From an uncultured Candidatus Saccharibacteria bacterium (GTDB lineage: Bacteria; Patescibacteriota; Dojkabacteria; J137): 64,000 nucleotides of DNA. A model generated the notes under the pieces. That model was not told where the DNA came from. It ran no database searches and saw only the letters and a program-made list of their open reading frames with translations. A program made the translations under genes and the position numbers. Positions 1,789 through 46,571 of the stretch are shown piece by piece (the first letter of the stretch is position 1; each line of letters begins with the position of its first letter). The DNA lies in assembly GCA_964607415.1 (NCBI GenBank), contig CAZSKK010000002.1, positions 158,380-222,379 on the forward strand, in the 5' to 3' direction.

Positions 1789-1825
1789 CTTCTTGAATCA
1801 TGAATCTTAATTCTTGAATCTAATT
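1789..1825 (+). promoter_or_regulatory. TGAATC heptad motif (family copy 1)
   Basis: cttcttgaatcatgaatcttaattcttgaatctaatt has four heptad-spaced TGAATC/TAATTC units. It lies 24 bp upstream of the NDT-like-RHH paralog 1 ATG. Confidence 0.4.
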
Positions 1826-1848
1826 GCTACCAACTTACCGCTAATTAT

Positions 1849-2403
1849 ATGAAAGTATTTTTTACCGCCTCCTACTCAGGAAAGCAAAAGTATCAAAAGT
1901 ACTACGACCTTGTTCTAAAAGCTATTCAATCAACAGGCGCAGATATCATTTCCCCTGAACTTAACAATTATAAAAAGATTTTGACTCAAGTTGAAATGAA
2001 TAGTCTAAAAACAGACAAGGAAATTCATTATGAAGCGATAAGAAAAGGGATTATTTGGGCCGACGTTGTAATAATAGAGATTAGTAATCCCGATTTTCAA
2101 CTAGGATATGAAGCAAACCTTGCCATCCAATCTAAAAAACCAGTTTTATGCCTTTCTACAATCGAAGATTTTAGCTTAAAAATACACCACCGTTTTTTTT
2201 ATGGTGCAAAATATACAAAGTTTAATGTAAAAGACTTTGTGGTTGATTTTATTGTAAAGCACAGAAAAGAATTACTTTCAGAAAGATTTAATTTTTTTAT
2301 TTCAAAATCACAACTTCAACATTTGACAATTCAGTCAGAGAAAAATGGAATTAATATGTCTGAATATCTAAGAAAACTAATAGAAGATGATATGATTAAT
2401 TAG
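1849..2403 (+). CDS. Nucleoside 2-deoxyribosyltransferase-like (NDT/SLOG-type) domain fused to C-terminal ribbon-helix-helix (paralog 1 of 3)
   Basis: KVFFTASYSG...ADVVIIEISNPDFQLGYEANLAIQSKKPVLCL matches the NDT-like core, with a conserved Glu in the GYE motif. The C-terminal FNFFISKSQLQHLTIQSEKNGINMSEYLRKLIEDDM has a strand-helix-turn-helix RHH pattern. Confidence 0.55.
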   Translation: MKVFFTASYSGKQKYQKYYDLVLKAIQSTGADIISPELNNYKKILTQVEMNSLKTDKEIHYEAIRKGIIWADVVIIEISNPDFQLGYEANLAIQSKKPVLCLSTIEDFSLKIHHRFFYGAKYTKFNVKDFVVDFIVKHRKELLSERFNFFISKSQLQHLTIQSEKNGINMSEYLRKLIEDDMIN

Positions 2404-3784
2404 TTTTAGCTTTGTGAAGTAATGTTAAGGAAATTAATGGAAAGAGATTTAAATACATATAGTTCCATGTAACAGCATTAAATTGTATAAATACAAAAAA
2501 TACAACGCTCAAAAAGAAAAGTAAACCGCTAAAAGTTTTCATGTGCTTCAAAGAAAGCAAACCAACAATAGCACTTAAACCTATTTGAAAAGGATAAATC
2601 AAGTTCTTAAGTTTAAAAACTTGCATTATTGGTGTTAAATGAATTGCTGTTTCTGACCACCAGCCATCCTTTATTGTCTGGCTATAGAATTCAATTGTAT
2701 GAATCCTATACGATTCAAAATCAGGAAGAACAAACGCCAGAAGCAACCCGATGCCAAGGATAAGTGAGCTAATACATACAAATATCGCTTGTTTTATTTG
2801 GTATTTTTTTAAAATATAAACAAAAACAAACGGAGTAAAAATCCATGCCCACACCTGTGTAAATATTCCAATCCCCCATGCAATTGCAAAGTGATTAAGC
2901 TTATTTCTTGATAAATAATAAAGACTTGAAATTAATAAAAACCAAAACGGAGGATCGTATAGATCCGATCTGGTTATTTTATAAGGAGTCAATAAAAATA
3001 TGGTTATAATCAATATAAAAAAGATCGCTCGTAAGTCAAAAGTTATTTTTTGCCTTGACTTATAAAAGAACTTATACAAAACAGTAACAACTCCCAAATT
3101 ATATAAAATGCTTAAAAATCTAGGATCAAATCCCAAAATTACACTTGGAATATAAAATAAAAAAGTACCTGGCTGCCTTACTGCCTGAGTAAAACTTCCG
3201 TTATCAAGTAAAAAAAACTGATAAATACTCTCTCCTTTTAAAAAAGCATCTCCTTGTTTAAGAATGATAGGCATAAGATCTGTAACTTTTGCCGTAATTG
3301 GAAAGTAATAAATTTGGAGTAATGAGAAAGCGATAAATGTTAGTAGTATTATAAAAAAAGCTTCCTTTACTTTTTTAGCAAATAGAAATAAACAAAAACT
3401 TATTAGGCAAGCTATCCAAACTAACCACACAATACCCTTCTGCTTTTCTATGCCCAAAGAATCTATGTTTTTGATAGTCAAAACTGAAATGGCAAGTAAA
3501 TTAAATGCAAAAATCAGTACAACTACATATAAAAAATAATGCATTGTAATAGTTTGTTTACCCAATGTGAAATTGTATTTTCTGAAGATTAAAATAATGT
3601 TAAAAAAAACTATAGAACTTAACACCCCAAGAATCAAACTTAAAAGCTTTCTATCAATGTCCGAATCAAGCGGGAAGAAGCCATCACCTTTAATTGTTAG
3701 GATTGTAGCCAACGCAAAAAAAAGTGATCCATTTATAAATAAACTTATTTGGAACTTTTTTAAATTATTATTTTTAATTCTCAT
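2396..3784 (-). CDS. Polytopic membrane protein, putative GT-C-type glycosyltransferase
   Basis: 462 aa with more than 10 predicted TM helices. No soluble domain recognised. Assignment is by architecture only. Confidence 0.35.
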   Translation of the reverse strand: MRIKNNNLKKFQISLFINGSLFFALATILTIKGDGFFPLDSDIDRKLLSLILGVLSSIVFFNIILIFRKYNFTLGKQTITMHYFLYVVVLIFAFNLLAISVLTIKNIDSLGIEKQKGIVWLVWIACLISFCLFLFAKKVKEAFFIILLTFIAFSLLQIYYFPITAKVTDLMPIILKQGDAFLKGESIYQFFLLDNGSFTQAVRQPGTFLFYIPSVILGFDPRFLSILYNLGVVTVLYKFFYKSRQKITFDLRAIFFILIITIFLLTPYKITRSDLYDPPFWFLLISSLYYLSRNKLNHFAIAWGIGIFTQVWAWIFTPFVFVYILKKYQIKQAIFVCISSLILGIGLLLAFVLPDFESYRIHTIEFYSQTIKDGWWSETAIHLTPIMQVFKLKNLIYPFQIGLSAIVGLLSLKHMKTFSGLLFFLSVVFFVFIQFNAVTWNYMYLNLFPLISLTLLHKAKTN

Positions 3785-3814
3785 AAACTTTAACTTCCTG
3801 TAAAATCAATTACC

Positions 3815-4468
3815 ATGATTTCGAAAGAACTAAACAAAAAAATATTAGCATTTTTTCTTTCTATTGTTTTTACAATAATATTTCTGCACATTACATTAAG
3901 CCAAGTTAGAGTTTTTGGTAAACACGACAGCATTTTTTATATGGATAGCCCTATCAGCCTTGCTAACCATTATGTTACAGTTATAAGTTTTATTGCTGCG
4001 TCCATTTTTTTATTATTTTTAACTACCTCAAAGCTGCAAATAAAAGAAAAAATAATTTATGCCATATTTTCATTATTTCTTTTTGCCCTTTCCTTTGATG
4101 AATACATAGAAATTCATGAAGCCAGTATTGATTTAGTAAAAAAATACTTTCCTGATAGCGATTTCGCAAGCGTTCTAGAACTGAGTTGGGTTTTGGTTCT
4201 GCTTGTCCCAATAATTGGTTTTATTGTGTTTGTAATTTTTTCAACTTTCAAAGAACGAAACAGTACTGTAAGAAAGCTATTGATAACTGGAATTATTCTT
4301 TTTTCTTTAATTCTTATTTCCGAAGTAGTTGGAGTTAATAGCTATAGCCATTCAAACCTATACTTTTCATTAGTTACGATTGAAGAATCGTCTGAAATGC
4401 TTTGTGTTACAATATTTTTATATGCAGCTCTAGAGAAACTACTTGAAAGCAGTAATATAAAAAGTTAA
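3815..4468 (+). CDS. Integral membrane protein (unknown function)
   Basis: 217 aa with multiple hydrophobic helices. Confidence 0.4.
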   Translation: MISKELNKKILAFFLSIVFTIIFLHITLSQVRVFGKHDSIFYMDSPISLANHYVTVISFIAASIFLLFLTTSKLQIKEKIIYAIFSLFLFALSFDEYIEIHEASIDLVKKYFPDSDFASVLELSWVLVLLVPIIGFIVFVIFSTFKERNSTVRKLLITGIILFSLILISEVVGVNSYSHSNLYFSLVTIEESSEMLCVTIFLYAALEKLLESSNIKS

Positions 4469-4500
4469 ATTTAAAGTATTAAAAATTTAAAATATACCTT

Positions 4501-4986
4501 ATGGGGAAAAAAACAGCGAGTTCTCAAAAACCTTTTGTCTCTAGTCAAGAACTTGTTCGAGGGTTTTTAATATTTTCAACCGTGTACTTCCCAGTCTCTG
4601 TTCTTTTTTTAAATAACGGAAAGCTTGAAGAACTAATCCTTGGTATTTTCACTTTTTTGCTAGCTTCAACCGGAATTATTTTAATTGCAAAATATCTTTG
4701 GATTGTTGGCGAATTTTTAAATGGCGCAAGAAGCAAACTAGGCGATCTTTTCAGATCATACTTTACTATGGTATTTTTACCTTTATGCATGTTTAAAGTC
4801 TTTGCATATAATATTTTGCAATTGATTCCAACATCCAATACTAATGAACTTTACTGCGACATAAGACATTTTGTATTAGGTATTTACCAAGTTACGGATC
4901 CACAATTTATTTTAAACTACTTAATTTTAGGTAGTTTAGTATTTATAGGATTACTAACAATTAGAAAGCTTACGCCCGTTGAATAA
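4501..4986 (+). CDS. Integral membrane protein (unknown function)
   Basis: 161 aa hydrophobic ORF. Confidence 0.35.
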   Translation: MGKKTASSQKPFVSSQELVRGFLIFSTVYFPVSVLFLNNGKLEELILGIFTFLLASTGIILIAKYLWIVGEFLNGARSKLGDLFRSYFTMVFLPLCMFKVFAYNILQLIPTSNTNELYCDIRHFVLGIYQVTDPQFILNYLILGSLVFIGLLTIRKLTPVE

Positions 4987-5440
4987 AAAGATTTAAACCC
5001 TTTTGCCTTAAGATAATAGTTAAGACCATCGTTATATTTACAAGAAAAATGTAGCCTGGGAATCCAATGTCGCGCATACTGTATGTTTCTAGCGAAAGCA
5101 GCACTAAAACTGAGGCTACAACATCACAAAAATAAAATTTTGCCACCTCTGTAAATGGCTGTCTATAAGCCTTGATAATCGATGGGCTTGTTCCAATAAA
5201 ATCAGTAAGTATAGATAGATAAAGTGCTATTATAGGATTTGAAGTTGAATACCATATTAACAAAGTTATACCTGCAGTAATTAATACAGAAATATCTAGC
5301 TTACTTTTCCCTCCCATTCCATACCTAAGTGACAACAAAAAAAGTATTATACATGCGCCCAATTGAACTATTGCTACAAAAAGCCCTTTTCTTTCACCCG
5401 ATAAAAACAAAGTCGCTACATATAATGAAACAATTATCAC
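4970..5440 (-). CDS. Integral membrane protein (unknown function)
   Basis: 156 aa with about 4 TM helices. Confidence 0.4.
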   Translation of the reverse strand: MIIVSLYVATLFLSGERKGLFVAIVQLGACIILFLLSLRYGMGGKSKLDISVLITAGITLLIWYSTSNPIIALYLSILTDFIGTSPSIIKAYRQPFTEVAKFYFCDVVASVLVLLSLETYSMRDIGFPGYIFLVNITMVLTIILRQKGLNLFIQRA

Positions 5441-5549
5441 ATAAATAAACCAGTTCTTTGAGGCTTATACTCTCCTTTGAAAATAGACACAATGGCGATT
5501 ACAGGACCTACAAGTGAGACCAAAATTGATGTAAAAAGAAAAACTTCTT

Positions 5550-5951
5550 TCATGAATTAGATTCTAAAAATGTAGTATATAAATTTTTAAAATATGGCGG
5601 GAAATCTTCTATGTTTGAATCAAAAACCGATTGAAACCAGAAGCAGTTTCTAAGATATGCCCTTAAACCTATTGGATGAACACCTTGTGTAAAACCATTG
5701 TCTTTTAACTCATCTATTTCATCGATATCTATATAGACTTTTACAAATATCTTACCTGCTTGTACAGCAAATAAAAAACCGCTTACAACAGCACAAGTAC
5801 CATCCAAATTATCGACATTTCTTTGCCAATCATCAGGCAATGCTTCCATTCCCAGCATTTCTAGTGGGACAGGCACGTTATAGTTAAGACTTTCCATAAA
5901 CTTTCCACGCAATAAATTATTTGTTATGATTTTAAAGTATTTATCTGTCAA
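5550..5951 (-). CDS. Hypothetical protein
   Basis: 133 aa ORF divergent from the TrmB regulator. No recognisable motif. Confidence 0.35.
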   Translation of the reverse strand: MTDKYFKIITNNLLRGKFMESLNYNVPVPLEMLGMEALPDDWQRNVDNLDGTCAVVSGFLFAVQAGKIFVKVYIDIDEIDELKDNGFTQGVHPIGLRAYLRNCFWFQSVFDSNIEDFPPYFKNLYTTFLESNS

Positions 5952-5961
5952 CCTAAATCAG

Positions 5962-6786
5962 ATGTCCGGAATGCCAGACAACTTAATTAATAATTTGAAG
6001 GTTTTTGGTTTATCTACCGAAGAGGCCGAACTTTATATCTTATTAATTAAAAAGGGGGCACTTACAGCTTTAAATATAAGTCGAGACCTAAAAATTGCCC
6101 GAACGAAAGTATACCGTCTCCTAGAAAAATTAAAGGAAAAGGGATTTGTAGTAGAAGAAATACAAAGCTATGGTTCAAAATTTAAGGCTGAATCATACGA
6201 AAGATTTAATGCAATAATTAAGGACAAAGAGGAAGAGCTTAAGCACATAAAAAATCACTCCGCCGAGCTTTTTAATACACTCGCCTCTCTTCAATCAGTG
6301 GATAATCAAAACTCTAAAATCTTGTACTACAAAGGAGTTGAAGGGCTTAAGCAAGTAACTTGGAACAGTTTAAAAGCAAAAAACATTCTAAGAATATTCG
6401 AAATAAAAGATATGTCAGGGTTCTTGAGCTTTGATTTTGCTGAAAAAGTAAGACAAGAGCTTGTAGAAAGGAAAATAATGACCCATCAACTTACCAATTT
6501 ACCCAAAATTGAGGGGTATTCAGAAAACACTACCCATGTAACAAAATTTTGGACTCCACGATATATCAATCCTGAATTCCTAAATATTGATTTTGAAATT
6601 TTAATTTATAACGATGTTTACTGCATGTATAACTATAAAGATGATGACATTTTTATCGTTGAGATTTATAATGAAAAGCTAGCTAGAATGCAAAAAAAGA
6701 TTTTTGATTTTGTATGGAGCCAGTCACTACCAATGCAGATATTAAACAATAAAGGTGAAGCAGCAATAAAAAGCGTCCGTGCTTAG
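5962..6786 (+). CDS. TrmB-family transcriptional regulator
   Basis: N-terminal LSTEEAELYILLIKKGALTALNISRDLKIARTKVYRLLEKLKEKGFV is a TrmB wHTH. Length is about 275 aa, full-length with effector domain. Start placed at the internal ATG (5962) to avoid overlap with the upstream divergent ORF. Confidence 0.65.
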   Translation: MSGMPDNLINNLKVFGLSTEEAELYILLIKKGALTALNISRDLKIARTKVYRLLEKLKEKGFVVEEIQSYGSKFKAESYERFNAIIKDKEEELKHIKNHSAELFNTLASLQSVDNQNSKILYYKGVEGLKQVTWNSLKAKNILRIFEIKDMSGFLSFDFAEKVRQELVERKIMTHQLTNLPKIEGYSENTTHVTKFWTPRYINPEFLNIDFEILIYNDVYCMYNYKDDDIFIVEIYNEKLARMQKKIFDFVWSQSLPMQILNNKGEAAIKSVRA

Positions 6787-6834
6787 GACAAAATAATTAA
6801 AAAAGTATAAATAAATAAGATTGTTTTTAAAATC

Positions 6835-20137: not shown

Positions 20138-20337
20138 AATGTAAGACGCCTACTACCCTTGCCTATGCCGTAGGATCTGTAACCTTTTCAGACATTGGCA
20201 GGTTTGATAACTGGCTTAGAAAATTTAAGTATATAGTTATTGAAACATTTAAAAATACTGATGTACAAGTTACCGAAATTTACGTTAACGGCTGGGAATA
20301 TATAATTGATCCTAAGGCCTGAGTTTCAATTCCTGAG

Positions 20338-20360
20338 CTTGATTCATAATTCTTGATTCC
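20338..20360 (+). promoter_or_regulatory. TGATTC/TAATTC heptad motif (family copy 2), upstream of heliorhodopsin
   Basis: cttgattcataattcttgattcc lies 66 bp upstream of the heliorhodopsin ATG. Confidence 0.4.
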
Positions 20361-20425
20361 TCTTTCATATTTAGGTACATTATACTTAAGTTAGCTATCT
20401 TTTTTACTTTTTACACACCTAATCT

Positions 20426-21220
20426 ATGGAAGCAAAAGCTTCAGCAAACGATCCGAAGGTTTTTTCCAATCTTAGGATTTTTAACCTTATAATGGGTGTT
20501 CTACACTTACTTCAAGGAACCTTAATGCTAGCATTAAGTAATGATACAAAGTATACATTAACAACTAGTTTTTTAAGATTTAATCCAAATGCCGCAGAAC
20601 CAGTCCGATCAGTTACTGAAGAGTTAGTTAAAATTCCTCTTGGCCCTGCAATTGCTGCTTTTCTTTTTATTTCGGCAATGGCTCACTTTACAATAGCTGC
20701 GCCTGGAGTATATGAATGGTATGTTAAAAATCTTAAAAAAGGAGCAAACTATGCTAGATGGTATGAATACTCAATTAGCTCATCTTTAATGATAGGAGTA
20801 ATTGGCATTCTTTGCGGAATATTTGATGCACCAAGCTTGATTCTATTAATGGCGTTAAACGCTTGTATGATTTTTTTTGGTCTTGTGATGGAGCTTCATA
20901 ATCAAACAACTAAAAAAACCGATTGGACTTCATTTATTTATGGTTGTTTTGCTGGAATTGTACCTTGGCTAATCTTAGGCTGGTATTTTTTTGATGCAAT
21001 TGCAAATGTAGAGACAACAAATCCTGTTCCTAAATTTGTTTATGGAATACTAATTTCGCTATTCATATTCTTTAATATTTTTGCTGTAAATATGTTTTTG
21101 CAGTACAAAAAAGTTGGGCCCTGGAAGAATTATATATTTGGTGAAAAAATGTACATAGTTTTGAGTTTACTTGCAAAGTCAGCTCTTGCTTGGCAAGTAT
21201 TTTCTGGAACATTGAGATAA
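20426..21220 (+). CDS. Heliorhodopsin (7TM microbial rhodopsin, inverted topology)
   Basis: 264 aa with 7 TM helices. Diagnostic blocks WYEYSISSSLMI, CFAGIVPW, FVYGILISLFIFFN and YIVLSLLAKSALAWQVFSG match heliorhodopsin family signatures. The last block contains the retinal Schiff-base Lys. Confidence 0.8.
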   Translation: MEAKASANDPKVFSNLRIFNLIMGVLHLLQGTLMLALSNDTKYTLTTSFLRFNPNAAEPVRSVTEELVKIPLGPAIAAFLFISAMAHFTIAAPGVYEWYVKNLKKGANYARWYEYSISSSLMIGVIGILCGIFDAPSLILLMALNACMIFFGLVMELHNQTTKKTDWTSFIYGCFAGIVPWLILGWYFFDAIANVETTNPVPKFVYGILISLFIFFNIFAVNMFLQYKKVGPWKNYIFGEKMYIVLSLLAKSALAWQVFSGTLR

Positions 21221-26995: not shown

Positions 26996-27056
26996 TTAAT
27001 TGGTTATTAGTTGATTGGTTAATTGGCTCTTGTACTAATTAACCATTATACTAATT
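26996..27056. repeat. ~60-bp intergenic repeat, copy A (3' flank of fmt)
   Basis: ttaattggttattagttgattggttaattggctcttgtactaattaaccattatactaatt is about 85% identical to copy B. It has 10-bp terminal inverted repeats GTTAATTRGT...ACTAATTAAC. Confidence 0.6.
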
Positions 27057-28063
27057 TACTCATTAACTTTGTTCTCGCTAGCCAGCCAGAGGTACTCATG
27101 CCCACTACCCTTTTTCTTCCCTTCAATTTGAACTTCTAAGAGCTCTAATACACCGTTAGAAAGTTGAAGGTAAAGTTTTTTGTTTTGTTTAAATATGAAA
27201 GCATTGTCAGAAGCCTTACGCTCTAAGCCATACGCTTCTGACCTCTGACCACTAACCTCAGACCTAACTGCCTTATATATCTTCAATACCTTTGTATCCC
27301 TTTCTCGTAATTCATTTTTCGTAATTGGGAGTCTAGTCCACGCTATGGGCCACGGGTTAAATGCTCTAATCATTCTTTCTGAAACATTTATATCCGTTTC
27401 AAACTTAATCTCAGCTTTATCTTTAGAAATATCTGTTTTATAACAATATGTAGCCTTAGAATCATCTTGAGGGAATTCTTCTAATTCTCCTGAAATCCAA
27501 TTTTCAAGATTTTCAGATAAAATTTCTTTCGCAACAAGTGATAATTCATTCATTAACTCTCCTGCCGTTTTGCCCTCTACCTCTAAACCTCTCGACCTTG
27601 CGATTACGGGACCTTTATCCATTTCAGAAACCATTCTTTGAATAGTAACACCAGTTTCTTTAAATCCTTGTAAAACTGCCATTTGAACAGGAACAGCTCC
27701 TCTTAATAAAGGTAAAAATGATCCATGAATATTTAAACATTTGTGTTTAGGATACTCCAAAATATCATCAGGAATTATTTGTCCATAAGCTGCAACAATT
27801 ATAAGTTCAGGTTTAAATTTTTCTAAAATTACTTTAGATTCCAGCCTTAATTTTATAGGAGTAATAATTTTGTCCGAATCAAAGCCTTTTGATTGTGCAT
27901 ATGTTTTTATTTCAGTTGGTGTTAACACTTGCTTTCGACCAACAGGTTTATCTGGTTGAGTTACAATTCCAACTAGATCTATAAAATCACAACTCATCAG
28001 AAACTCCAATGAAGGGGTTCCAAAATCACTTGAACCGATAAAAAGAGTTCTTACTTTGTTCAT
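27056..28063 (-). CDS. fmt: Methionyl-tRNA formyltransferase
   Basis: Formyl-transferase N-domain FIGSSDFGTPSLEFL...VGIVTQPDKPVGRK and a C-terminal Fmt domain. Confidence 0.8.
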   Translation of the reverse strand: MNKVRTLFIGSSDFGTPSLEFLMSCDFIDLVGIVTQPDKPVGRKQVLTPTEIKTYAQSKGFDSDKIITPIKLRLESKVILEKFKPELIIVAAYGQIIPDDILEYPKHKCLNIHGSFLPLLRGAVPVQMAVLQGFKETGVTIQRMVSEMDKGPVIARSRGLEVEGKTAGELMNELSLVAKEILSENLENWISGELEEFPQDDSKATYCYKTDISKDKAEIKFETDINVSERMIRAFNPWPIAWTRLPITKNELRERDTKVLKIYKAVRSEVSGQRSEAYGLERKASDNAFIFKQNKKLYLQLSNGVLELLEVQIEGKKKGSGHEYLWLASENKVNE

Positions 28064-28132: not shown

Positions 28133-28150
28133 GACGAATTAACTTCCTAT

Positions 28151-28183
28151 ATTCTTTATTCTTGATTCATAATTCTGAATTTG
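28151..28183 (+). promoter_or_regulatory. TGATTC/TAATTC heptad motif (family copy 3), upstream of the ileS leader
   Basis: attctttattcttgattcataattctgaatttg shares a 16-bp identical core cttgattcataattct with the copy at 20338. Confidence 0.4.
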
Positions 28184-28189
28184 TGCTAA

Positions 28190-28410
28190 AATCAGTTAAC
28201 GCATTGAAGGAGCAATCACTCCGGAGCAAAGAGCAGAACAGCCAAAGAGCAATAGAGATGAAGAGCAAGCTTAATAGCTCTAAAACTCTCAACCTCTTAA
28301 GCTTATTAGACCTCTTCGGGTAGCCCGAAATAGCTATAAAATTAAGTGCTTGGCAACTTCGCCAGGAATTAGGGTGGTAACACGGTAAACTTCATATCGT
28401 CCCTTCTATA
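28190..28410 (+). promoter_or_regulatory. T-box-like leader RNA upstream of ileS (Ile specifier candidate AUCA)
   Basis: AATTAGGGTGGTAACACGG at 28367-28385 closely resembles the T-box consensus AAUUAGGGUGGNACCGCGG. AUCA lies in a hairpin loop about 150 nt upstream, and an AGAGA element sits at 28251. It is located 5' of an aminoacyl-tRNA synthetase gene. Confidence 0.5.
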
Positions 28411-28563: not shown

Positions 28564-31542
28564 ATGTTCAGCAAACCAAACCCAAAGCAGAATTTCTTTG
28601 ATCTAGAGCAACAAATTTTAAACTGGTGGAAGGAGCAACAGATTCTAGAAAAATCGATTAACCAACGACCAGACGATCAGTCTAAAACATTCTACGATGG
28701 TCCTATTACTGCCAATGGTGAGCCTCATCACGGGCATATGCTTACGTTTGCAATGAAAGATATTATTCCAAGATACTGGACAATGAAAGGCTATAAGGTC
28801 AGTAGAAGTTTAGGATGGGACTGTCAAGGTATTCCTGTTGAATATGAAGTTGAAAAAAAATTGGGTTTTACTGAAAAAAAAGATATTGAAAAGTACGGCG
28901 TTGCAGCTTTTAATCAACTTTGTAGAGAATCAGTTGAAAAATATAGAGGAAATATCATTGAACTTGAAGAACTGATGGGTAGACTTACAAACTCTGATGA
29001 AGAGTTTGCAACAATGGATAGGGATTATATTGAATCAGTATGGTGGTCGTTGAGTGAACTTTATAAAAAAGGCCTCCTTTACGAAGGATTTAAAGTTGTT
29101 CCATACTCAACAAGAGCTGGAACTACGCTCTCAAACGCAGAAGTTGCTTTAGGAGGATATAAGCCTTTTGTTGATCCCGCAATCACTGTTGAATTTCCTT
29201 TAAAGGATGATCCTAAAACAATATTACTTGCTTGGACAACAACACCCTGGACAATACCTTCAAACCTAGGGCTTGCTGTCGGTAAAGATATTAAATATGT
29301 GAAAGTGAAAAGCCAGGTGCCTGATAATACTTACATTGTTGCAAAAGATTTGATAAAACAAGTATTTAAAGATGATCCAGTAGAAATTATTGGAGAAGTG
29401 GCAGTGGGTGAACTGGTAGGTAAGGAATATACTCCACCTTTCGATTTTTATGCTGGAAGAAAAAATGTCCATAAAATTTACGAAGGTTTCCATGTAACTA
29501 CTGATTCGGGTACAGGAATAGTTCATCTTGCGCCATATGGTGCTGAAGATAATGAAATATTTCAAAAAGTCGGCATTGAAAGCTTCGATTATTTAGATGA
29601 GCAAGGTGATTTTATTTCTACAGTTCCAATGTATGCTGGAATTAATTATAGAGATGCTAATCCAAAAATAATTGAAGATCTAAAAGCCAAAGATGCATTA
29701 TTTAGAAATGAAGAATATGAGCACGAAATGCCTATGTGTTGGAGAACAAACACTCCACTTATTTATAAACCAATAACCTCTTGGTTTATTGCAATGAGCA
29801 GCTTAAGAAAAGAACTGGTTGATAATAATAATAAAATCAACTGGATACCATCTCATGTAAAAGACGGTAGATTTGGAAACTGGCTTTCTGAAATTAAAGA
29901 TTGGGGAATATCCAGATTAAGATACTGGGGCACCCCTTTACCAGTCTGGAAATCAGCAAGCGGAAAAATAATCTTCATAGGTTCATTTGAAGAAATTGAA
30001 AAATATACTGGCAAAAAAGTAGAAGACCCCCATAAGCCGTTTATTGATGATTTTGTGTTCGAGTATGAAGGAGAAACTTACAAAAGAATTCCAGATGTAA
30101 TTGATGTTTGGTACGATTCAGGTGCTATGCCATTTGCAAGATTTCACTATCCTTTTGAAAACGAAGAAAAATTTAAGAAAAAATTCCCTGCACAATACAT
30201 TGCCGAAGGGGTTGACCAAACAAGAGGCTGGTTCTACTCTCTTCATGCTATAGGAACTGCACTTATGGATAGCCCAGCATTTGAAAATGTTGTTATGAAC
30301 GGATTTGTATTGGACGACAAAGGTGCTAAATTAAGTAAGAGCAAGAAAAATTATACAGCACCAAAACCGCTAATTGAAAAATTTGGAGCCGACACAATTA
30401 GACTAAACTTCTTTTCAACCGCAATCTCTGCAGGAGAAGATACAACTGTTAGTGAAAAAACTCTAAATATTCAAAAGCAAGAAACTATCCTTCCACTTTG
30501 GAACATCTATTCTTTCTTTACAACCTATGCAAACTTGCATAACTGGGAACCCCGCTCTGAGCTTTGTTACAACAATCGTGAAAACAAAGCCGATGAATTT
30601 CCTTGGGATCACATGCCCTTTAATGATTTGGAAAATAATTTAGACGCATGGATTTTATTACTCCTTCAAGAAACAATAAAAGAAGTAACCAGTGCTTTGG
30701 ACAAATACGAAATACCAAGGGCAACAAGAAGCGCAAAATCATTTATAGACGATCTTTCTAAATGGTATATAAGAAGAAATAGAGATAGATTTGCAAGTGG
30801 TGATACTGATGCCCTAGATACACTTTATTATGTACTTGTAGAGTGCTTAAAGCTATTTGCACCAATAACACCATTTATAACTGAATACATTTACAAAGAG
30901 CTTGTAGCTAGTCAATTAAGCGATATGCCTGAATCAGTGCATTTAACAAACTACCCTACTTCAGACACACAATTTATTGAACAGTACTCAGCTTTACTTG
31001 AAGAGATGAGAATTATTAGAGAAGTTTGTGAAATGGGCCACTCTTTAAGAACTACAAATCAACTTAAAGTAAGACAACCACTTGCGAAAGTTGAGTTAAT
31101 TAATACTAATGTTGCAGTTCCTGCTTTCTCAGATTGGATGAAAAAGATATTAATGGATGAACTTAACGTAAAAGATGTTGTAGAAGTCATGCAATTTTCA
31201 TCAAAAAAAGTTATAAATACAGAAAATGCTGCCTTAAGCATAAAAGTAGGATTAGACACGGAAATCACACAGGATCTTTTAGATGAAGGCCTTGTGAGGG
31301 ATATAACTAGAGAAATTCAAAGCATTAGAAAGAACATGAGTCTTGATATTGGTGATAAAATAACTTTGAGCTATCAAACAAATGATGTAGACTTAAATAG
31401 AATTCTTGAGAATTTTAAGGAAACTATTTTGAATAGTATTAATGCAGCTGAAATTTTGAATGTAGAAAGTATTAAACAAGACACTAAACAGGAAATAGAT
31501 TTAAATGGCAAAAAAGTTACAATTAATTTAGTTAAAAAGTAA
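28564..31542 (+). CDS. ileS: Isoleucyl-tRNA synthetase (type 2)
   Basis: HIGH motif PHHGHML, KMSKS motif KLSKSKKN, editing domain, 992 aa. Confidence 0.9.
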   Translation: MFSKPNPKQNFFDLEQQILNWWKEQQILEKSINQRPDDQSKTFYDGPITANGEPHHGHMLTFAMKDIIPRYWTMKGYKVSRSLGWDCQGIPVEYEVEKKLGFTEKKDIEKYGVAAFNQLCRESVEKYRGNIIELEELMGRLTNSDEEFATMDRDYIESVWWSLSELYKKGLLYEGFKVVPYSTRAGTTLSNAEVALGGYKPFVDPAITVEFPLKDDPKTILLAWTTTPWTIPSNLGLAVGKDIKYVKVKSQVPDNTYIVAKDLIKQVFKDDPVEIIGEVAVGELVGKEYTPPFDFYAGRKNVHKIYEGFHVTTDSGTGIVHLAPYGAEDNEIFQKVGIESFDYLDEQGDFISTVPMYAGINYRDANPKIIEDLKAKDALFRNEEYEHEMPMCWRTNTPLIYKPITSWFIAMSSLRKELVDNNNKINWIPSHVKDGRFGNWLSEIKDWGISRLRYWGTPLPVWKSASGKIIFIGSFEEIEKYTGKKVEDPHKPFIDDFVFEYEGETYKRIPDVIDVWYDSGAMPFARFHYPFENEEKFKKKFPAQYIAEGVDQTRGWFYSLHAIGTALMDSPAFENVVMNGFVLDDKGAKLSKSKKNYTAPKPLIEKFGADTIRLNFFSTAISAGEDTTVSEKTLNIQKQETILPLWNIYSFFTTYANLHNWEPRSELCYNNRENKADEFPWDHMPFNDLENNLDAWILLLLQETIKEVTSALDKYEIPRATRSAKSFIDDLSKWYIRRNRDRFASGDTDALDTLYYVLVECLKLFAPITPFITEYIYKELVASQLSDMPESVHLTNYPTSDTQFIEQYSALLEEMRIIREVCEMGHSLRTTNQLKVRQPLAKVELINTNVAVPAFSDWMKKILMDELNVKDVVEVMQFSSKKVINTENAALSIKVGLDTEITQDLLDEGLVRDITREIQSIRKNMSLDIGDKITLSYQTNDVDLNRILENFKETILNSINAAEILNVESIKQDTKQEIDLNGKKVTINLVKK

Positions 31543-38243: not shown

Positions 38244-39515
38244 CTATCTTAAGTAATCTTTTAAAGCCTGGGCAATCTCGTCACTCTTCATTCTCTTTAA
38301 TGCTTTTGCTTCAATTTGTCTAATTCTTTCTCTTGTTACATTAAATTCATGTCCAACCTCTTCTAAGGTTCTTGCCACTCCATCTCTTAAACCAAATCTC
38401 AATTCTAGCACTTTTCTTTCTCTATCTGATAAGCCGTCAAGGATTTCATTAATTTGTTTTTTTAAGAATGACCATGTAGCTAATTCTTCTGGAGGTGCTG
38501 TAAATTCATCAGGAATAATATCTATAAGACTATTTTCTTGTTCCTCGCCAATTGGCATTTCAAGTGATTGCGGTTTTTGAGCTATTTTAACAATCTCCTG
38601 TACTTTATCTACACTTATCTCCATTTTATCAGCAATCTCTTTGGTTGTCGGTTTTCTACCTAAAGTTGATGCTAGCTGTGAAGATACTTTACTTAATTTA
38701 TTAATTGTTTCAATCATGTGAACTGGAACCCTTATTGTTCTAGCTTGATCAGCTATAGCTCTAGTTATCGCCTGTCTAATCCACCATGTAGCATAAGTCG
38801 AAAATTTAAAGCCTTTTCTATACTCGAATTTTTCTACCGCTCTCATCAAACCAAGATTTCCTTCCTGAATTAAATCTAGCAGGTCTAAGCCTCTTTTTAG
38901 GTAATTCTTTGCGATAGATACTACAAGCCTTAAATTTGCAGTAGTTAACAAATGCTGTGCTTCTATGCCATCTCTAATAGCTTTATTAATATATTTTTTA
39001 TCTTTATTAATTATTTGCCTTTTAGCTTTTTTTACCTCAGAAGATTTAACTTCCCCTATCTTAATATTCTCTAATGCTTTAACATAAACATCCTCCTTTG
39101 TTTCCTTTGCTAATTTTTTTATGATTTCGATAAGTTCATTTTCTCCATCTTCAATTCTTTTTGCCAAAATTACTTCTTCTTCTGCACTCAAAAGTGGAAT
39201 TTTTCCTATTTCTTGAAGGTAAGCCCTTATAGGGTCTGTACTTATGTGTGACCTTATCTGTTTTAATATTCTAATCTTATCCTCAAAGGTCATTTTATCT
39301 TTTACACTTTCTAATGAAACTTCAGCTGTATCTAGAGGAGATATAATCTCAACTTCGCTGTCTTGGAGGACATCTATAATATATTCTAAAAGTTGTAAAT
39401 CTTCTTCAATCTCAGGGAAAACGCTCAAAATATCGTCCTGTGAAAGATATCCCTGCTTTTTACCAAGAATCAAAATATTTTCAACCTTCTGTTTATCTTC
39501 TGGATGAATGGCCAT
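38244..39515 (-). CDS. rpoD: RNA polymerase sigma factor (sigma-70/RpoD)
   Basis: Region 2 [37 protein letters not shown]. Region 4 [15 protein letters not shown]. Confidence 0.85.
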
Positions 39516-41860: not shown

Positions 41861-42199
41861 ATTCTTAAATTTAAAATCTACAGATAAAAATTAATCAACA
41901 AAATAATTATTGCTTGATTAAATACTAATTCACATTACCAAAAAATTCAAGTATTAAAGCATACAAAATACCCTTTTTTGTGCAAGATTTTTACTCTATA
42001 GTTAAAAATCTATACTGCTTAGCCCTAAATTGGACAAAATTTTTATTCAAACATCGATCTTATCCAGAAAGTTTACTTAAATCGATTGGAATTTTTTAGC
42101 TTGAAATTTACAAAATTTAAAGAAGACTGATTTTCACTATATATAGGCTCATTTACCTTAAGCTACGTAAGAAAAAATTATTTTGAAGATAAAATGTGT

Positions 42200-43504
42200 T
42201 TATGGTAAAAGATTTTTGAAGAAACCCCGAGCTTTTCCTACTATACTGTCACCCGATTTCTTGATTGAATTGCCAGCAGCAAACCCAGTATTGCCAACTC
42301 GATATCCGTCATCATTCATACCATAAAGAATCAGACCCTGGCTTGCAGAGTAACTACTATCAGAAATACCGTCAATTAGACCTTCCAACCCTCTTGGCTT
42401 GCCTACTCTTGCTGGAACACCAAATACTTCTTTTGCAAGTGCTGTTATTCCTGGAAGATTAGCAGAGCCACCAGTAATAACAATACCCGCAGGAAGTTTG
42501 TATTCATTTCCAGACATTTCAATATTTTCCTTAACTAAATCAAAGACCTCTTTCACTCTGTCTTCAACGATCAAATTAAAGAATTTCCTGGAAATAGTTT
42601 TAACACCCTCAATATTAAGATCAGAAATATCCAAGATATCTATTTTTCGTTCACTTTTCTCTTCTTTTTCTTTATCATCTTTTTTATCATCCGATTTTCT
42701 TACTTGCTTTCTCTCTGAATTTTTAATTATATCCTCAATATTTACTTTTATTTTTTCAGCATCATCAATAGAAAGCCTTAAACCCGCCGCTAAATCTCGC
42801 GTTACATTGCTCCCTCCAAAAGGAACACAAGTACTATAAGTTACAGCATCTTCAACAAAAGTAGACACAGAAACCGTTCCTCCACCAAAGTCCATCAATA
42901 GTACACCAAGCTCCTTTTCTGTTTGAGTTAAAACAGATTGAGCAGAAGCCCAGCCACTAAACACTGTTCCGTCTATTCTTAAGCCGATGCTTTGAATACA
43001 TTTCTCCAAATTATGAATTGCTGTGCTTGGTGCTGAAATAATGTGAGCATCGACCTCAAGCCTTAAACCAGTCATACCTATAGGAACCTTTATTCCACTT
43101 TGCTGATCCACAACAAACTCTCTTGGAATCAAATGAATTATCTCTCTTCCAGGTGGAATTGCAACAGTTCTCGCCTGCTCTAAAGATCTAAAAACATCAT
43201 CATCGGTTATTTCAGATTCATTGATCGCAACTACACCTTTATTATTATTTGAAACAATATTTTTACCGTTTATAGAAACATATGCCGAAGAAACCGTAAG
43301 ACCGGCCATTCTTTCTGCTCCATTTAACGCCGATGCAATACTATTTATCGCCTCATCAATTCCGGTTATTTCACCTTTTCTAATACCATAAGATGGATAA
43401 GAAGCCTCTCCTATGACCTTAGCTTTACCATTTTCATCAACCAGCGCGATTATTGCGCAAACTTTACTTGAACCAATGTCTATTGCTGTTATTATATTGG
43501 ACAT
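42200..43504 (-). CDS. ftsA: Cell division protein FtsA
   Basis: Actin-fold ITAIDIGSSKVCAII...DFGGGTV motifs. Contains a Lys/Asp/Glu-rich low-complexity insertion. Confidence 0.8.
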   Translation of the reverse strand: MSNIITAIDIGSSKVCAIIALVDENGKAKVIGEASYPSYGIRKGEITGIDEAINSIASALNGAERMAGLTVSSAYVSINGKNIVSNNNKGVVAINESEITDDDVFRSLEQARTVAIPPGREIIHLIPREFVVDQQSGIKVPIGMTGLRLEVDAHIISAPSTAIHNLEKCIQSIGLRIDGTVFSGWASAQSVLTQTEKELGVLLMDFGGGTVSVSTFVEDAVTYSTCVPFGGSNVTRDLAAGLRLSIDDAEKIKVNIEDIIKNSERKQVRKSDDKKDDKEKEEKSERKIDILDISDLNIEGVKTISRKFFNLIVEDRVKEVFDLVKENIEMSGNEYKLPAGIVITGGSANLPGITALAKEVFGVPARVGKPRGLEGLIDGISDSSYSASQGLILYGMNDDGYRVGNTGFAAGNSIKKSGDSIVGKARGFFKNLLP

Positions 43505-43717
43505 AAAAGTAATATCACTTAAGTATAATTAATCAAATTTTTGAATTTTATGATTTATTATATGGCAAGCTAAATGAAATATAGTATTCATTTTAGACGA
43601 ACCATAATTTAGTTTACAACATTAAGAATATCATTTTCAAGTTAACTTTACTACAACAGCAACTAATTATCAATTTGCAATTAAAAAAATTTTGAACTTT
43701 ACTAATGTTTAATTTAT

Positions 43718-44428
43718 TCAAAAAGCCTTTTCGGCAATTCCAAATGCACATAAAACGACCCCTACCACGTACCCTCCTATAGCAAAGTATTTTACTGTAT
43801 TTTGAGATACATAATGTGCAGTGTTTTTTATATTTGTTTTTTGATCTACTTCAAAATCTCTATACTGATTGTAAAAACATCCTCCTGCAGAAAAAAATCC
43901 TACCCCAATAAAAATCAGATATGATCCTAATGTTACTTTGCTTGATGGTAGACTAAGAAAGTAAAGCACTTCTACCATGGCTAACGCATATACATGGCTT
44001 AAAACATCCAAAACAGGTATACTTTTAAACCTTACCACCCTCCACGAGTACAAGTGTCCTGCCAATAGCCCTGAAAGAGCTATTATGATTGGAATGAGCG
44101 AACCCGAAACCAAACTTATAAGAACGCTTAAAAGTGCTGTAAGTCGTAATAGCCAAACCGCTTCTTTATAACTAATAAACTTTGCCGAAATAGGATTTCT
44201 TAAAGCTTTCTTGGGATCTTTTGCATCATCAGCATAGTCTTCACAATCATTAACAACAAACGCATAAGCTAAAATTGCAAAATTAACCAATAGACCTAGG
44301 ATTATTTCAAACGTAAAGTTCCATGCCGCAATAATACCGACAATCATTAATGGGAAGTAAAAATCTTTAAGAATCACGTCAACTCTAGAAAGTCGATAAT
44401 AACCTATTAAATATTTTTTTAATTTCAT
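43718..44428 (-). CDS. UbiA-family membrane prenyltransferase
   Basis: First Asp-rich motif VNDCEDYADDAKD (NDxxDxxxD), second motif YRDFEVDQ, multiple TM helices. 236 aa, short for the family. Confidence 0.5.
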   Translation of the reverse strand: MKLKKYLIGYYRLSRVDVILKDFYFPLMIVGIIAAWNFTFEIILGLLVNFAILAYAFVVNDCEDYADDAKDPKKALRNPISAKFISYKEAVWLLRLTALLSVLISLVSGSLIPIIIALSGLLAGHLYSWRVVRFKSIPVLDVLSHVYALAMVEVLYFLSLPSSKVTLGSYLIFIGVGFFSAGGCFYNQYRDFEVDQKTNIKNTAHYVSQNTVKYFAIGGYVVGVVLCAFGIAEKAF

Positions 44429-44551
44429 AAATTAGCTACAGTAAGATATTTACAGTAATGCAATGGTAACATATAGTAATTAATTGTAATACACTTGATC
44501 ATCAAGAAATTACTATTCTGTTCCAAATTTTTGAATCCTAAATATTAATTC

Positions 44552-45697
44552 TCACTTAACCGAATAAGTATCGGACCTCAAATCAAATACAGAACCTTGG
44601 TTTATAACGTCCGAATAAATTATTGTTTCCAAATCGGCCATTTGATCTTCTATTGTGCGTTTATTCGTAAATAAAAATGTTTTATTATCCTGCAATTTCA
44701 GTTGAAGAGTATATTCAGAGATCCATTTTATCTCAAGTACAACTATATTTTGTTCTTTGATTCTACCATAAAGCCTAATTACAAAGTCATTTTTATCAAA
44801 CTCTATCTGATCATTTTTTTTATAATCAACTCTTGAATTACTTGTAACTACAACCAGCTGTGGAAACTCACTATCTTTTACCGACATAATAAGCTCATTT
44901 TGAATCGAAAATATCAAATCATTAGCTTCTTTTTTCAATTTATCTAAAAGTTCGGTCTTTTTTGTTTGATCAACTTCCTCCCACTTTATGGTTGACCGTT
45001 CTTCAGAATCCTCTATTGTTAACAAATACCTTTCTTTTAGATAAGTTGAGTTTACATCAATCTCATTTGATACAAGTTTCAAATCATCGTCAGTGACAGG
45101 TTTCACGTTTGTTGCTCTAATTGACACAACTGTATAATTTTTATCCAATAGATAAGCACCCTTCAAATTCACATAGGCCATTACGGGAAATTTTTCTACA
45201 ACTTCCAATTGCAACGTATCAGGCATGATTTTTCTTACATATACTTCCTGTATAAAATCATATTGTTGTTTAATATTAGTTTTTATTTCTTGAGTATTTG
45301 CATTAATTAAACTTTTCCCTCTGTATTGCTCTACGCTTTGATTAAAAACTTCTTGGTTAACCTGTTCCAGCCCTAAGATTTCAATTTTTTTTATTTTAAA
45401 AAAAGGTAAATCTGAATATCTTGGCAGTACTTGCCAGAAGAATGCAAAAATAACTAAAATAAAAAGTAAAATCCTAAAGTTTCTACTTTTTAAGGGATTT
45501 TTCAGCCTATATTCACTGTTTGCTTTTTTTACTTTATTCATTTTTGTATTTCTTTTTCTCAGCTCCTTCAATTCTTTCGAACTCATTTGGTTTGGTTTAT
45601 TCCAAACAATTCCACCGGTTGGTTTTTTGTATACAACCGAAGCTTCTTTTTTCTTTTTATTTCTTGGCAATTTAAACTTCATAAAACTATTATACAA
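44552..45697 (-). CDS. FtsQ/DivIB-like division protein (POTRA domain) with basic N-terminal extension
   Basis: Single TM followed by POTRA-like FFKIKKIEILGLEQVNQEVF...LINANTQEIKTNI. Sits in the division cluster. Confidence 0.55.
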   Translation of the reverse strand: MYNSFMKFKLPRNKKKKEASVVYKKPTGGIVWNKPNQMSSKELKELRKRNTKMNKVKKANSEYRLKNPLKSRNFRILLFILVIFAFFWQVLPRYSDLPFFKIKKIEILGLEQVNQEVFNQSVEQYRGKSLINANTQEIKTNIKQQYDFIQEVYVRKIMPDTLQLEVVEKFPVMAYVNLKGAYLLDKNYTVVSIRATNVKPVTDDDLKLVSNEIDVNSTYLKERYLLTIEDSEERSTIKWEEVDQTKKTELLDKLKKEANDLIFSIQNELIMSVKDSEFPQLVVVTSNSRVDYKKNDQIEFDKNDFVIRLYGRIKEQNIVVLEIKWISEYTLQLKLQDNKTFLFTNKRTIEDQMADLETIIYSDVINQGSVFDLRSDTYSVK

Positions 45698-45775
45698 ATT
45701 TTAAAGCTACAAAAAATGGCCATGAAGAAAATACTTTCTTCATGGCCATAATTTACTATTATTCCTATTTATAAA

Positions 45776-46066
45776 CTAGGCTCCAATTTGCTTTACAAAT
45801 TTAGCTACATCTTCTTTGTTTTCCGCTGTCCTTTCCAAATACTTTATTAACCTTCTTCTTTCACCAACGATTTTCAACAAACCTCTTCTTGAATGTTTAT
45901 CTTTTTTATGAGTCTTTAAATGACCCGTTAAATACTTAATCCTTTCTGTTAGTAAAGCGATCTGAACCATTGGAGAACCTGTATCACCTTCATGCTCTCC
46001 ATACTTTTTAATTAGATCTTGTTTAATTTGCTTATCTTTTGCAAATCTGTTTTTCTTGCTAGACAT
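45776..46066 (-). CDS. rpsO: 30S ribosomal protein S15
   Basis: [51 protein letters not shown]. Confidence 0.8.
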
Positions 46067-46128
46067 ATTTTCCTTTAATAAAATTTACCTAGTTATTATA
46101 TAATATTAATAACCCTTATGCAACAATG

Positions 46129-46452
46129 TTAGGAGCTTTTCCGCGAAGATTTATTTTTACTTCTGGAGAAAAAACCAAAAACCTTCTTTAGCATATACAA
46201 AATATCTGTTACTGACAATAGCTTTTGCAAAGAATCTAATGAAGAAATTGCCTTTTCACGTATAGCCTTATAATCCTCTTCTACCCCTTGAACAAGATTA
46301 GTTACATGACTTGTTGCTACTCTTAAATCTTTAAGCCCGAGAATTAATTGGCCAAAAAGCCTTATTATCTGGATTGCGATACCTAGAATTGCGAAACTTA
46401 TAGACAAGACGAGAATAACTTTTGCTATATCATAAGCAGTTTGAGTGTCCAC
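46129..46452 (-). CDS. Small membrane protein (107 aa)
   Basis: One TM helix with a basic C-terminus. Confidence 0.3.
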   Translation of the reverse strand: MDTQTAYDIAKVILVLSISFAILGIAIQIIRLFGQLILGLKDLRVATSHVTNLVQGVEEDYKAIREKAISSLDSLQKLLSVTDILYMLKKVFGFFSRSKNKSSRKSS

Positions 46453-46539
46453 GTGTAATAAAGATAATTGCGAATAAAATAAGAGTATTCTTGTAATCTA
46501 ATTTAGTATATATTCATTTAAGTTTCAAATCAAACCTAT

Positions 46540-46571
46540 AATTCTTGAATCATGAATCTTGAATCTGTAAT
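46540..46571 (+). promoter_or_regulatory. TGAATC heptad motif (family copy 4)
   Basis: aattcttgaatcatgaatcttgaatctgtaat contains three direct TGAATC heptads. It shares 19 identical bp with the copy at 1789 and lies 36 bp upstream of the ATG. Confidence 0.4.

Follow-up and report, generated by a model that had tools for sequence, protein, structure and literature searches.

Tandem heptanucleotide arrays upstream of the heliorhodopsin, ileS and other genes of a Dojkabacteria contig: probable solo copies of a dispersed, STRR-like repeat family

In a 64-kb stretch of DNA from an uncultured Candidatus Saccharibacteria bacterium (GTDB lineage Dojkabacteria; contig CAZSKK010000002.1, positions 158,380 to 222,379), referred to here as the window, short repeated motifs precede several unrelated genes, among them those encoding heliorhodopsin and isoleucyl-tRNA synthetase (IleRS, gene ileS). 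These motifs are head-to-tail arrays of a heptanucleotide with the consensus WTRAWTC and the core TTGAWTC. We consider them to be probably solo copies from a family of dispersed heptanucleotide tandem repeats, similar in kind to the STRRs (short tandemly repeated repetitive sequences) of cyanobacteria, rather than operators of a regulator.

A preliminary description of this DNA had reported near-identical motifs upstream of a gene for an NDT-like protein with a C-terminal ribbon-helix-helix (RHH)-like tail, the heliorhodopsin gene, the leader of ileS and an alpha/beta hydrolase gene. All four sites (s1 to s4, Table 1) were confirmed, each comprising three to four heptads in tandem on the forward strand, and so were the genes behind them (heliorhodopsin: Pfam E 2e-98). 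Likewise, the distinction of two subtypes proved to be exact, with the 17-mer CTTGAATCATGAATCTT common to s1 and s4 and the 16-mer CTTGATTCATAATTCT common to s2 and s3. The observation is therefore real, and it can be extended by a fifth strong array, s5, which fills the spacer in front of an Amidase_2 gene (53531-54229). As s5 lies on the reverse strand, the assertion that all motifs occupy the forward strand holds for the original four but not for the whole set. A sixth, weak and degenerate array (s6) adjoins with its 3′ edge the stop codon (TCA on the forward strand) of an ftsQ-like gene (44552-45697, reverse strand), a geometry that matches arrays beside convergent genes in other genomes.

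A tri-heptad weight matrix, trained on s1 to s4, i.e. on four of the five strong sites and without s5, returned five matches of at least 20 bits, all of which fall within the intergenic 12.7% of the window (P = 3e-5 for five out of five). At this threshold no match was obtained in 300 first-order Markov simulations of intergenic sequence or in 40 of coding sequence. In addition, the 15-mer TTGAWTCATRAWTCT has four exact matches in the window, and 14 when up to two mismatches are allowed, compared to 4.4 expected.

The repeat extends far beyond this genome. When one genome per species was scanned for the exact 21-mer TTGAWTCATRAWTCTTRAWTC, at least 119 stretches were retrieved, compared to a few tens of matches expected by chance according to a rough hand estimate. 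Among the matches listed, from which taxon proportions can be read qualitatively only, most derive from Patescibacteria of many classes (Saccharibacteria, Roizman-, Moran-, Taylor-, Levy-, Kaiser-, Campbell-, Doudna-, Uhr- and Peribacteria as well as Parcubacteria), and further ones from Anaerolineae/Thermoflexus contigs with a GC content of 60-64%, from Pyrinomonadaceae and from a few other groups. These external arrays contain 3-12 units, and most exceed the three units demanded by the search pattern. The scan also bears on the trivial explanation that the motifs are a low-complexity artefact of an AT-rich genome, as the window has a GC content of 33% (30% in intergenic DNA) and the unit is 71-86% AT. 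AT-richness cannot explain the arrays because they are present in contigs of 60-64% GC and mostly contain more than three units; moreover, the composition-matched simulations yielded no match compared to the five observed, and exact 16- to 17-mers recur between sites. The uniform distribution which the preliminary description had named as the signature of AT bias was not borne out either, as the repeat extends to genomes of 60-64% GC. We count this explanation as refuted.

The genomic context was analyzed for 121 external arrays within 845 kb of fetched flanking DNA. Loci with one array often hold more: they showed approximately 89 extra array calls per Mb before overlapping two-strand calls were removed, and the 845 kb contain 181 non-overlapping arrays. 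Between related genomes, the density ranges from 0 to approximately 80 per Mb. Of the 121 arrays, 34 (28%) are located inside genes, all of them antisense and none sense, because each sense unit contains a TGA, so that three successive units block every reading frame. The intergenic arrays are oriented without preference relative to the strand of the downstream gene (37 same, 38 opposite). Many arrays end 0-15 nt from a Shine-Dalgarno (SD) sequence or an ATG, or else directly at a convergent gene's stop codon. All-against-all BLAST comparison of the 73 proteins encoded just downstream of external arrays revealed no common family, with one unrelated pair. In the IleRS of three distant bacteria of the Candidate Phyla Radiation (CPR), the array-coded peptides LRIKNHESRI and IDSRFKIHDSR occupy, in a gap-free alignment, positions at which the orthologues, the window enzyme included, have ordinary and poorly conserved residues; in-gene copies thus replace residues without adding length.

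The units within an array resemble each other more than independent units would: position 5 is uniformly T in 68 and uniformly A in 14 of the 121 external arrays, far above the expectation for independent units. The sequence around the arrays is not shared, since the 42-nt flanks on each side of 119 arrays contain no conserved sequence, which rules out that the array is the tip of a longer conserved repeat. Three further candidates were rejected. A phage origin is at odds with only five matches in 2.9 million viral contigs; an in-frame insertion like that of the Rickettsia palindromic elements (RPEs) does not agree with the gap-free IleRS alignment; and as GANTC methylation sites the units would lack a conserved G, since A stands in its place in about one third of them.

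Comparison with related loci indicates that the arrays come and go independently of the genes they precede. In 77 metagenome ileS loci (1.0 Mb; the closest 65-67% identical), not one array lies upstream of ileS, and a single array was found in total, versus five per 64 kb in the window. Heliorhodopsin orthologues with 70-78% identity likewise lack an array upstream. In a sister lineage (L203) with the same gene order and a 95% identical heliorhodopsin, s2 contains exactly one heptad fewer, and this 7-nt gap is the sole indel in the otherwise collinear alignment with the window. At the locus of a 91% identical NDT-RHH orthologue (L209), both flanks of s1 are kept, and the array is represented by a degenerate AT-rich version only; at that of an 80% identical orthologue (L211), the whole s1 segment is missing. 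The s1 array is hence less conserved than its own flanks. Within the strain no such change is seen. The s2 array is identical in five samples and the s4 intergenic region in six, including one strain with 99.75% identity, so that phase variation was rejected. Copy number differs, by one unit, only in the comparison of lineages whose adjacent proteins share 95% identity. The unit-wise indel, the gene-independent presence, the fixity within the strain and the homogeneity of the units together indicate tandem duplication or slippage over evolutionary time. Judged by these alignments, the data point to arrays that would represent neither a conserved binding site nor a rapidly phase-variable element.

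Taken together, the arrays gain and lose units as a whole, in the way expected from slippage or tandem duplication, and are homogenized internally. They persist where they are tolerated, i.e. in either orientation between genes and, in genes, antisense only and at poorly conserved residues. We propose that the arrays in front of the heliorhodopsin, ileS, NDT-RHH, hydrolase and amidase genes would mark places where such a repeat can be maintained rather than a common regulation. Effects on expression may be secondary, the -35 box of the heliorhodopsin gene (see below) being the one supported case.

The preliminary description had considered a dedicated RHH-type, response-regulator-type or AbrB-type factor and a candidate regulon that includes the heliorhodopsin gene. 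According to this explanation, the NDT-RHH paralogs, acting like omega, or one of the other factors would bind the heptads cooperatively. The architecture has a precedent, since the operators of the omega (RHH) repressor of inc18 plasmids consist of tandem 7-bp heptads (WATCACW) and, as in the window, of contiguous units upstream of genes. Moreover, an RHH-tailed protein is encoded beside s1, which could suggest autoregulation, two array subtypes stand beside two paralogs, and the arrays are invariant within the strain. However, the unit differs from that of omega, no omega homologue is present, and tblastn with the two NDT-RHH paralogs and with another, third tail of the RHH-like type (51616-52200) detected no homologue in the 845 kb around the 121 external arrays. 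The NDT-RHH proteins represent a Microgenomates-type CPR family, but arrays are found in Saccharibacteria, Parcubacteria and Anaerolineae, and NDT-RHH orthologues with 80-91% identity lack a clean array upstream. Furthermore, arrays lie in genes and in both orientations, and the membership of the supposed regulon is not conserved with the orthologues of ileS, heliorhodopsin or NDT-RHH. A repeat that is dispersed across phyla beside unrelated genes does not sustain the regulon, and we regard operator arrays as very unlikely.

A second explanation, also raised in the preliminary description together with TATA-like -10 candidates behind the four sites, is that the heptads were selected as reiterated -35 boxes (TTGAWT) or UP-like elements of sigma-70 promoters. 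It finds its best support at s2. The last unit of this array lies 17 bp from TACATT, a -10 candidate 44 nt before the heliorhodopsin ATG, and at the same relative position array-free orthologues carry TTGACG-17-TAATAT (L206) and TTGATC-17-TAATAT (L208), 35-40 nt before the ATG. From this alignment, the last s2 unit is probably the -35 box of the heliorhodopsin promoter, and the array either grew from an existing -35 box or supplied one. A similar arrangement can be seen at s4, and s3 is followed by an extended -10-like element (Table 1). All five strong arrays face the downstream gene, and a primary sigma factor, with region 4, is encoded in the window (rpoD, 38244-39515).

However, a consensus promoter scanner called no promoter that uses an array hexamer at s1 to s4, and its counts equal the shuffle expectation; the heliorhodopsin promoter stays below its threshold of 9/12. 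At s1 there is no usable -10 element within the 28 nt to the start codon, and a conserved TTGCAA-18-TAATAT upstream would place the array in the 5′-UTR, whereas s5 abuts the ATG and leaves no room for a -10 element or a leader. The random orientation of the external arrays, their frequent position directly in front of SD sequences or start codons and the 34 copies in genes do not fit a promoter element either. In addition, just one unit can serve as a -35 box, which leaves the other units unexplained. The promoter claim thus survives in a narrow form, for one unit at the heliorhodopsin gene and, by eye, similarly at s4, and fails at s1 and s5; the -10 candidates are weak. As an account of the family, a promoter module appears unlikely.

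In other genomes, neighboring arrays show a strongly preferred relative orientation. Among 38 pairs of neighboring external arrays, 29 are arranged with their 5′ ends facing each other (-+), compared to one +-, five -- and three ++ pairs, and the gaps measure either 11-30 nt or 350-550 nt. On one strand, a -+ pair reads (GAWTCAW)n-loop-(WTGAWTC)n and is predicted to fold into a hairpin of 21-35 bp. Five of eight pairs with a large gap enclose a gene of the family PF05635/TIGR02436 (E 1e-35), which encodes a protein of approximately 130 amino acids labelled "23S rRNA intervening sequence protein", a four-helix bundle that weakly resembles Avd. The start of this protein (MNQE/MNHES) is coded by the left array, and its end (..HDS, followed by the stop codon) runs into the right array. 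The fetched CPR DNA contains seven PF05635 genes, all in loci selected by their arrays and none in the ileS set, and all seven are bracketed by inverted heptad arrays, two of which use the other units CTAACAA and GCGTTTA. As a check outside the array-selected sample, plasmid records were searched for PF05635, and most of the genes retrieved belong to Nostoc and Calothrix. Each of the six loci inspected is flanked by heptad arrays (Table 1). As a clean negative control, the Riemerella replicon has, over 50 kb, no period-7 arrays of three or more copies other than the two that bracket its PF05635 gene. The association, which spans four phyla, is based on 13 genes, and 13 of 13 inspected in CPR bacteria, Nostocales, Pseudanabaena and Riemerella are flanked by heptad arrays (L013, L020, L067, L073, L079, L101, L105 and L212-L217; for the Riemerella control L229, 48265-48833); these arrays mostly stand in inverted orientation, with a unit that varies among cassettes.

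Two observations on individual cassettes may be added. In one locus (L016, 4753-5347), the inverted pair brackets an HD-domain gene (PF13328) instead, and again the start codon (MNQE...) lies inside the array. Of the PF05635 cassettes on plasmids of Pseudanabaena (L217) and Nostoc edaphicum (L213), one is located between cas6 and cas4; the other, on the opposite strand, separates the ribonucleotide reductase genes for the beta and the alpha subunit.

This architecture is reminiscent of the intervening sequences (IVSs) with an S23p/PF05635 open reading frame (ORF) that interrupt 23S rRNA genes in Leptospira and Coxiella. In IVSs, which are cut by RNase III, terminal inverted repeats of approximately 28 bp surround the S23p ORF; the Coxiella IVS comprises 428 nt (PMC4990558). 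The cassettes share the inverted repeats, here arrays of 21-35 bp, the PF05635 ORF and a size of approximately 400-550 bp, and ORF-less versions with loops of 11-30 nt exist as well. In contrast to IVSs, they lie outside rRNA genes, with no rRNA found in the window or in the seven cassette loci, and their termini are tandem heptads; the window arrays, moreover, are solo and accompanied by no PF05635 gene. Inverted array pairs elsewhere form long hairpins and bracket PF05635 genes in an rRNA-IVS architecture outside rRNA. It is conceivable, as a tentative extension, that heptad arrays of the STRR type, the TTGAWTC family included, are the termini of widespread small PF05635 cassettes, of which the classical rRNA IVS would be a special case. 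Solo arrays and ORF-less hairpins in CPR bacteria, Chloroflexota, cyanobacteria and Bacteroidota would then be footprints or non-autonomous derivatives, and the protein would recognize or propagate its own heptad. Our literature search on the heptad sequence and on a link between PF05635 and STRRs retrieved nothing.

The hairpins also bear on a third alternative, namely that the heptad is a functional word that acts post-transcriptionally or marks the chromosome for a conserved factor, with in-gene copies accommodated via codon choice. At the RNA level, it could provide an unstructured AU-rich leader or translational enhancer, insulate cistrons by stops in three frames or, when paired in cis or trans, serve as a substrate for RNase III; on the chromosome, it could bind a nucleoid protein, act as a signal of the uptake or recombination type or be methylated at GANTC. 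In line with such a role, many arrays end 0-15 nt before an SD sequence or an ATG, the TGA in every unit provides three-frame stops, the paired arrays resemble the RNase III stems of IVSs (PMC4990558), and STRRs have been proposed to stabilize transcripts or to couple translation (PMC2670836). Moreover, the in-gene copies replace residues at constant length like uptake-type words, and the unit is conserved across phyla. However, the random intergenic orientation speaks against a role of the sense strand in RNA. The window arrays are solo, an inverted partner having been sought and none found, and neither folding of the five sites nor a search for inverted repeats gave anything remarkable, the folds being no better than those of shuffled controls (z -0.3 to -1.5). 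The G of GANTC is variable, and a density that drops to zero in related genomes is unlike an essential genome-wide signal. On balance, we judge a functional word to be improbable.

STRRs are the closest known relatives in kind. In cyanobacteria, they are 7-bp repeats of unknown function that can form hairpins and occur in promoter and intergenic regions and also inside the RNase P RNA gene (PMC2670836; Vioque 1997 as cited in PMC2858038). Likewise, the arrays described here have a 7-bp tandem unit (three to four copies in the window, 3-12 elsewhere), dispersed copies and several unit families, lie between and in genes and form hairpins when inverted. In the window, the in-gene case is an array of a second family in fmt, while the TTGAWTC arrays are all located outside genes. 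STRR-type arrays also flank PF05635 genes in Calothrix and Nostoc plasmids, as they do in CPR bacteria. Differences concern the hosts, which are Patescibacteria, Chloroflexota and others rather than the heterocystous cyanobacteria with STRR1-3, and the unit, which in the window is AT-rich, -35-like and common across phyla. To our knowledge, STRRs have been described neither with antisense-only copies that replace protein residues in genes nor as brackets around PF05635 genes, and our searches yielded no publication on one or the other. The window arrays are therefore STRR-like, not members in the strict taxonomic sense. The TTGAWTC family is new in its host phyla, its unit and its sharing across phyla, whereas the kind itself, STRR heptad repeats, has already been described.

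Other repeats share single traits. The RPEs of Rickettsia add 30-50 residues to proteins, and the uptake sequences of Haemophilus and Neisseria are single words, each in one bacterial family. Both resemble the heptad arrays in that copies lie in protein genes, at poorly conserved positions and with permissive frame and orientation; unlike them, the heptads form tandem arrays, replace residues at constant length and cross phyla. Contingency loci with simple sequence repeats, such as the heptanucleotide repeats upstream of hmw1A of Haemophilus influenzae (PMC8262952), also place heptanucleotides between promoter elements and gene, and whole units change between lineages. However, the window arrays do not vary within the strain (five to six independent samples), are short with three to four units and belong to a family dispersed genome-wide and across phyla.

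Several points weigh against reading the window arrays as solo copies of such a repeat. Each of the five strong arrays lies between genes and precedes a gene with which it shares its orientation, and none is located in a gene, compared to 28% elsewhere. Local selection or a function in the window is possible, although only s2 and s5 are informative on orientation because the other three stand between divergent genes, where an array would face a gene whichever way it pointed. The exact 16- to 17-mers common to s1/s4 and s2/s3 are a second such point. Thirdly, neutral slippage alone does not account for the same unit being kept across phyla, which suggests that a trans-acting factor is shared or that the unit has spread horizontally. 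In the external loci, ORFs were mapped crudely, as the longest ones with at least 100 amino acids, and some contexts may be miscalled in GC-rich genomes. Finally, the 64-kb window contains no PF05635 gene and no inverted partner arrays, and the link to cassettes hence rests on other genomes. We nevertheless consider a dispersed heptad repeat family the probable explanation.

Several heptad families coexist side by side in the window, with five to six TTGAWTC and two TTCTGAC-type arrays in 64 kb. The array inside fmt (TTCTGAC/CTCTGAC family) would encode approximately RSEVSGQRSEA in an inter-domain linker, and the unit type of this second family also flanks the PF05635 gene of Nostoc punctiforme (L214). 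In several CPR and other loci (L073, L099, L064, L085 and L053), long period-7 and period-8 runs of other units lie beside a TTGAWTC array, an indication that these genomes, too, harbor many heptad families. In the IleRS genes of distantly related CPR bacteria (L008, L042, L095), arrays recur at two variable spots, after HLxxWP and after KVRQPLA; in L095, an in-gene and a post-gene array, inverted, bracket the C-terminal 142 residues.

The window is CPR-like, as the relatives of its heliorhodopsin and NDT-RHH proteins carry the names Dojkabacteria and Patescibacteria. The two NDT-RHH paralogs (1849-2403; 57646-58236, reverse strand) belong to a conserved CPR family of approximately 185 amino acids with 281 matches (52-66% identity in Dojka-, Ames-, Levy- and Doudnabacteria and WWE3), for which no NCBIfam model was found and which matches Pfam NDT only below threshold. 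A nucleoside- or nucleotide-sensing DNA-binding protein is an attractive guess. Directly 5′ of s1, a 22-nt segment with a small palindrome, TTGATTGGCCAAGATGCTTC (1771-1792), is missing at the sister locus L209. On the 3′ side, CTAATTGCTACCAACTTACCGCTAATTAT (1820-1848) contains two copies of CTAATT 21 bp apart and is kept at L209, where the array is not; as an autoregulatory operator of the NDT-RHH gene, this putative element would be more plausible than the heptads.

An Rfam scan of the window returned two tRNAs and a sub-threshold T-box and nothing else. In this ileS leader (Table 1), Stem I is shortened and a long insertion is present, and standard annotation would miss it. Upstream of the heliorhodopsin gene, comparison of 20138-20425 with L203 (1421-1961) reveals a loss of approximately 260 nt from the window. 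In the 95% identical sister lineage, an intact 134-aa gene stands between the U32 peptidase and heliorhodopsin genes; the window lacks the 5′ two-thirds of it, and what remains ends 16 nt before s2. The GNAT acetyltransferase ORF (54262-54721, reverse strand) ends early near 54335 at a run of A residues, and the remainder of a typical GNAT C-terminus (KAIEFYKSKGFSIHEIVLEKNL, followed by the stop codon) runs on in another frame to approximately 54262. The early stop could reflect a frameshift, pseudogene formation or an error in the assembly.

Table 1. Heptad arrays, associated elements of the window, and heptads flanking PF05635 genes on plasmids.
Feature	Position	Strand	Description
Array s1	1793-1820	+	TTGAATC ATGAATC TTAATTC TTGAATC; divergent intergenic region; 28 nt 5′ of NDT-like/RHH gene (1849-2403)
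Array s2	20339-20359	+	TTGATTC ATAATTC TTGATTC; degenerate units on to ~20373; 66 nt 5′ of heliorhodopsin gene (20426-21220)
Array s3	28148-28175	+	TATATTC TTTATTC TTGATTC ATAATTC; 19 nt 5′ of ileS T-box leader
Array s4	46538-46565	+	ATAATTC TTGAATC ATGAATC TTGAATC; 41 nt 5′ of alpha/beta hydrolase gene (46607-47320)
Array s5 (newly found)	54230-54250	-	TTAATTC TTGATTC TTAATCC; in GNAT/Amidase_2 gene spacer; abuts amidase ATG (54229)
Array s6 (newly found, weak, degenerate)	44531-44551	+	TTGAATC CTAAATA TTAATTC; 15.5 bits
TTCTGAC-type array	1625-1649	+	~3.6 units (Tandem Repeats Finder, TRF); same intergenic region as s1
TCTGACC-type array	27237-27265	+	~4 units (TRF); antisense inside fmt (27056-28063, -)
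Putative heliorhodopsin promoter	20353-20381	+	-35 TTGATT (last s2 heptad, 20353-20358), 17-bp spacer, -10 TACATT (20376-20381)
Candidate s4 promoter	46545-46573	+	TTGAAT (46545-50)-17-TAATAT (46568-73); by eye, below scanner threshold
Extended -10-like TGcTAAAAT	28184-28192	+	between s3 and T-box leader; nearest array TTGATT 19 bp upstream, poor spacing; not called by scanner
T-box leader of ileS (28564-31542)	28195-28407	+	Rfam RF00230, 50.7 bits, E 3e-10; gathering score 93
Calothrix PF05635 locus			GGTGTAG / CTACACC
Nostoc edaphicum PF05635 locus			AGTAGGG / CCCTACT
N. punctiforme PF05635 locus			AGTCAGG / CTCCTGA
Nostoc PCC 7120 PF05635 locus			CCCTCTG, one side only
Riemerella PF05635 locus			GGTTYAA / TTGAACC
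Pseudanabaena PF05635 locus			AAAAGCT / AAAAGCC, direct orientation

These results remove the tempting but wrong inference that heliorhodopsin, ileS and the other window genes are subject to a shared regulator. For the annotation of CPR genomes, it is relevant that the arrays mimic -35 boxes and create ATG/TTG-TGA mini-frames, and they can thereby mislead the prediction of start codons and motifs. Moreover, heptads of the STRR type are not confined to cyanobacteria, and one unit is common to many CPR lineages and Chloroflexota. If the link to PF05635 is mechanistic, it would provide a testable handle on the origin and function of STRRs and on the role of the IVS-encoded protein. If, furthermore, the arrays are indeed termini of PF05635 cassettes, the puzzles of the STRRs and of the IVS ORF would be tied together, and the arrays in front of the window genes would be accounted for.

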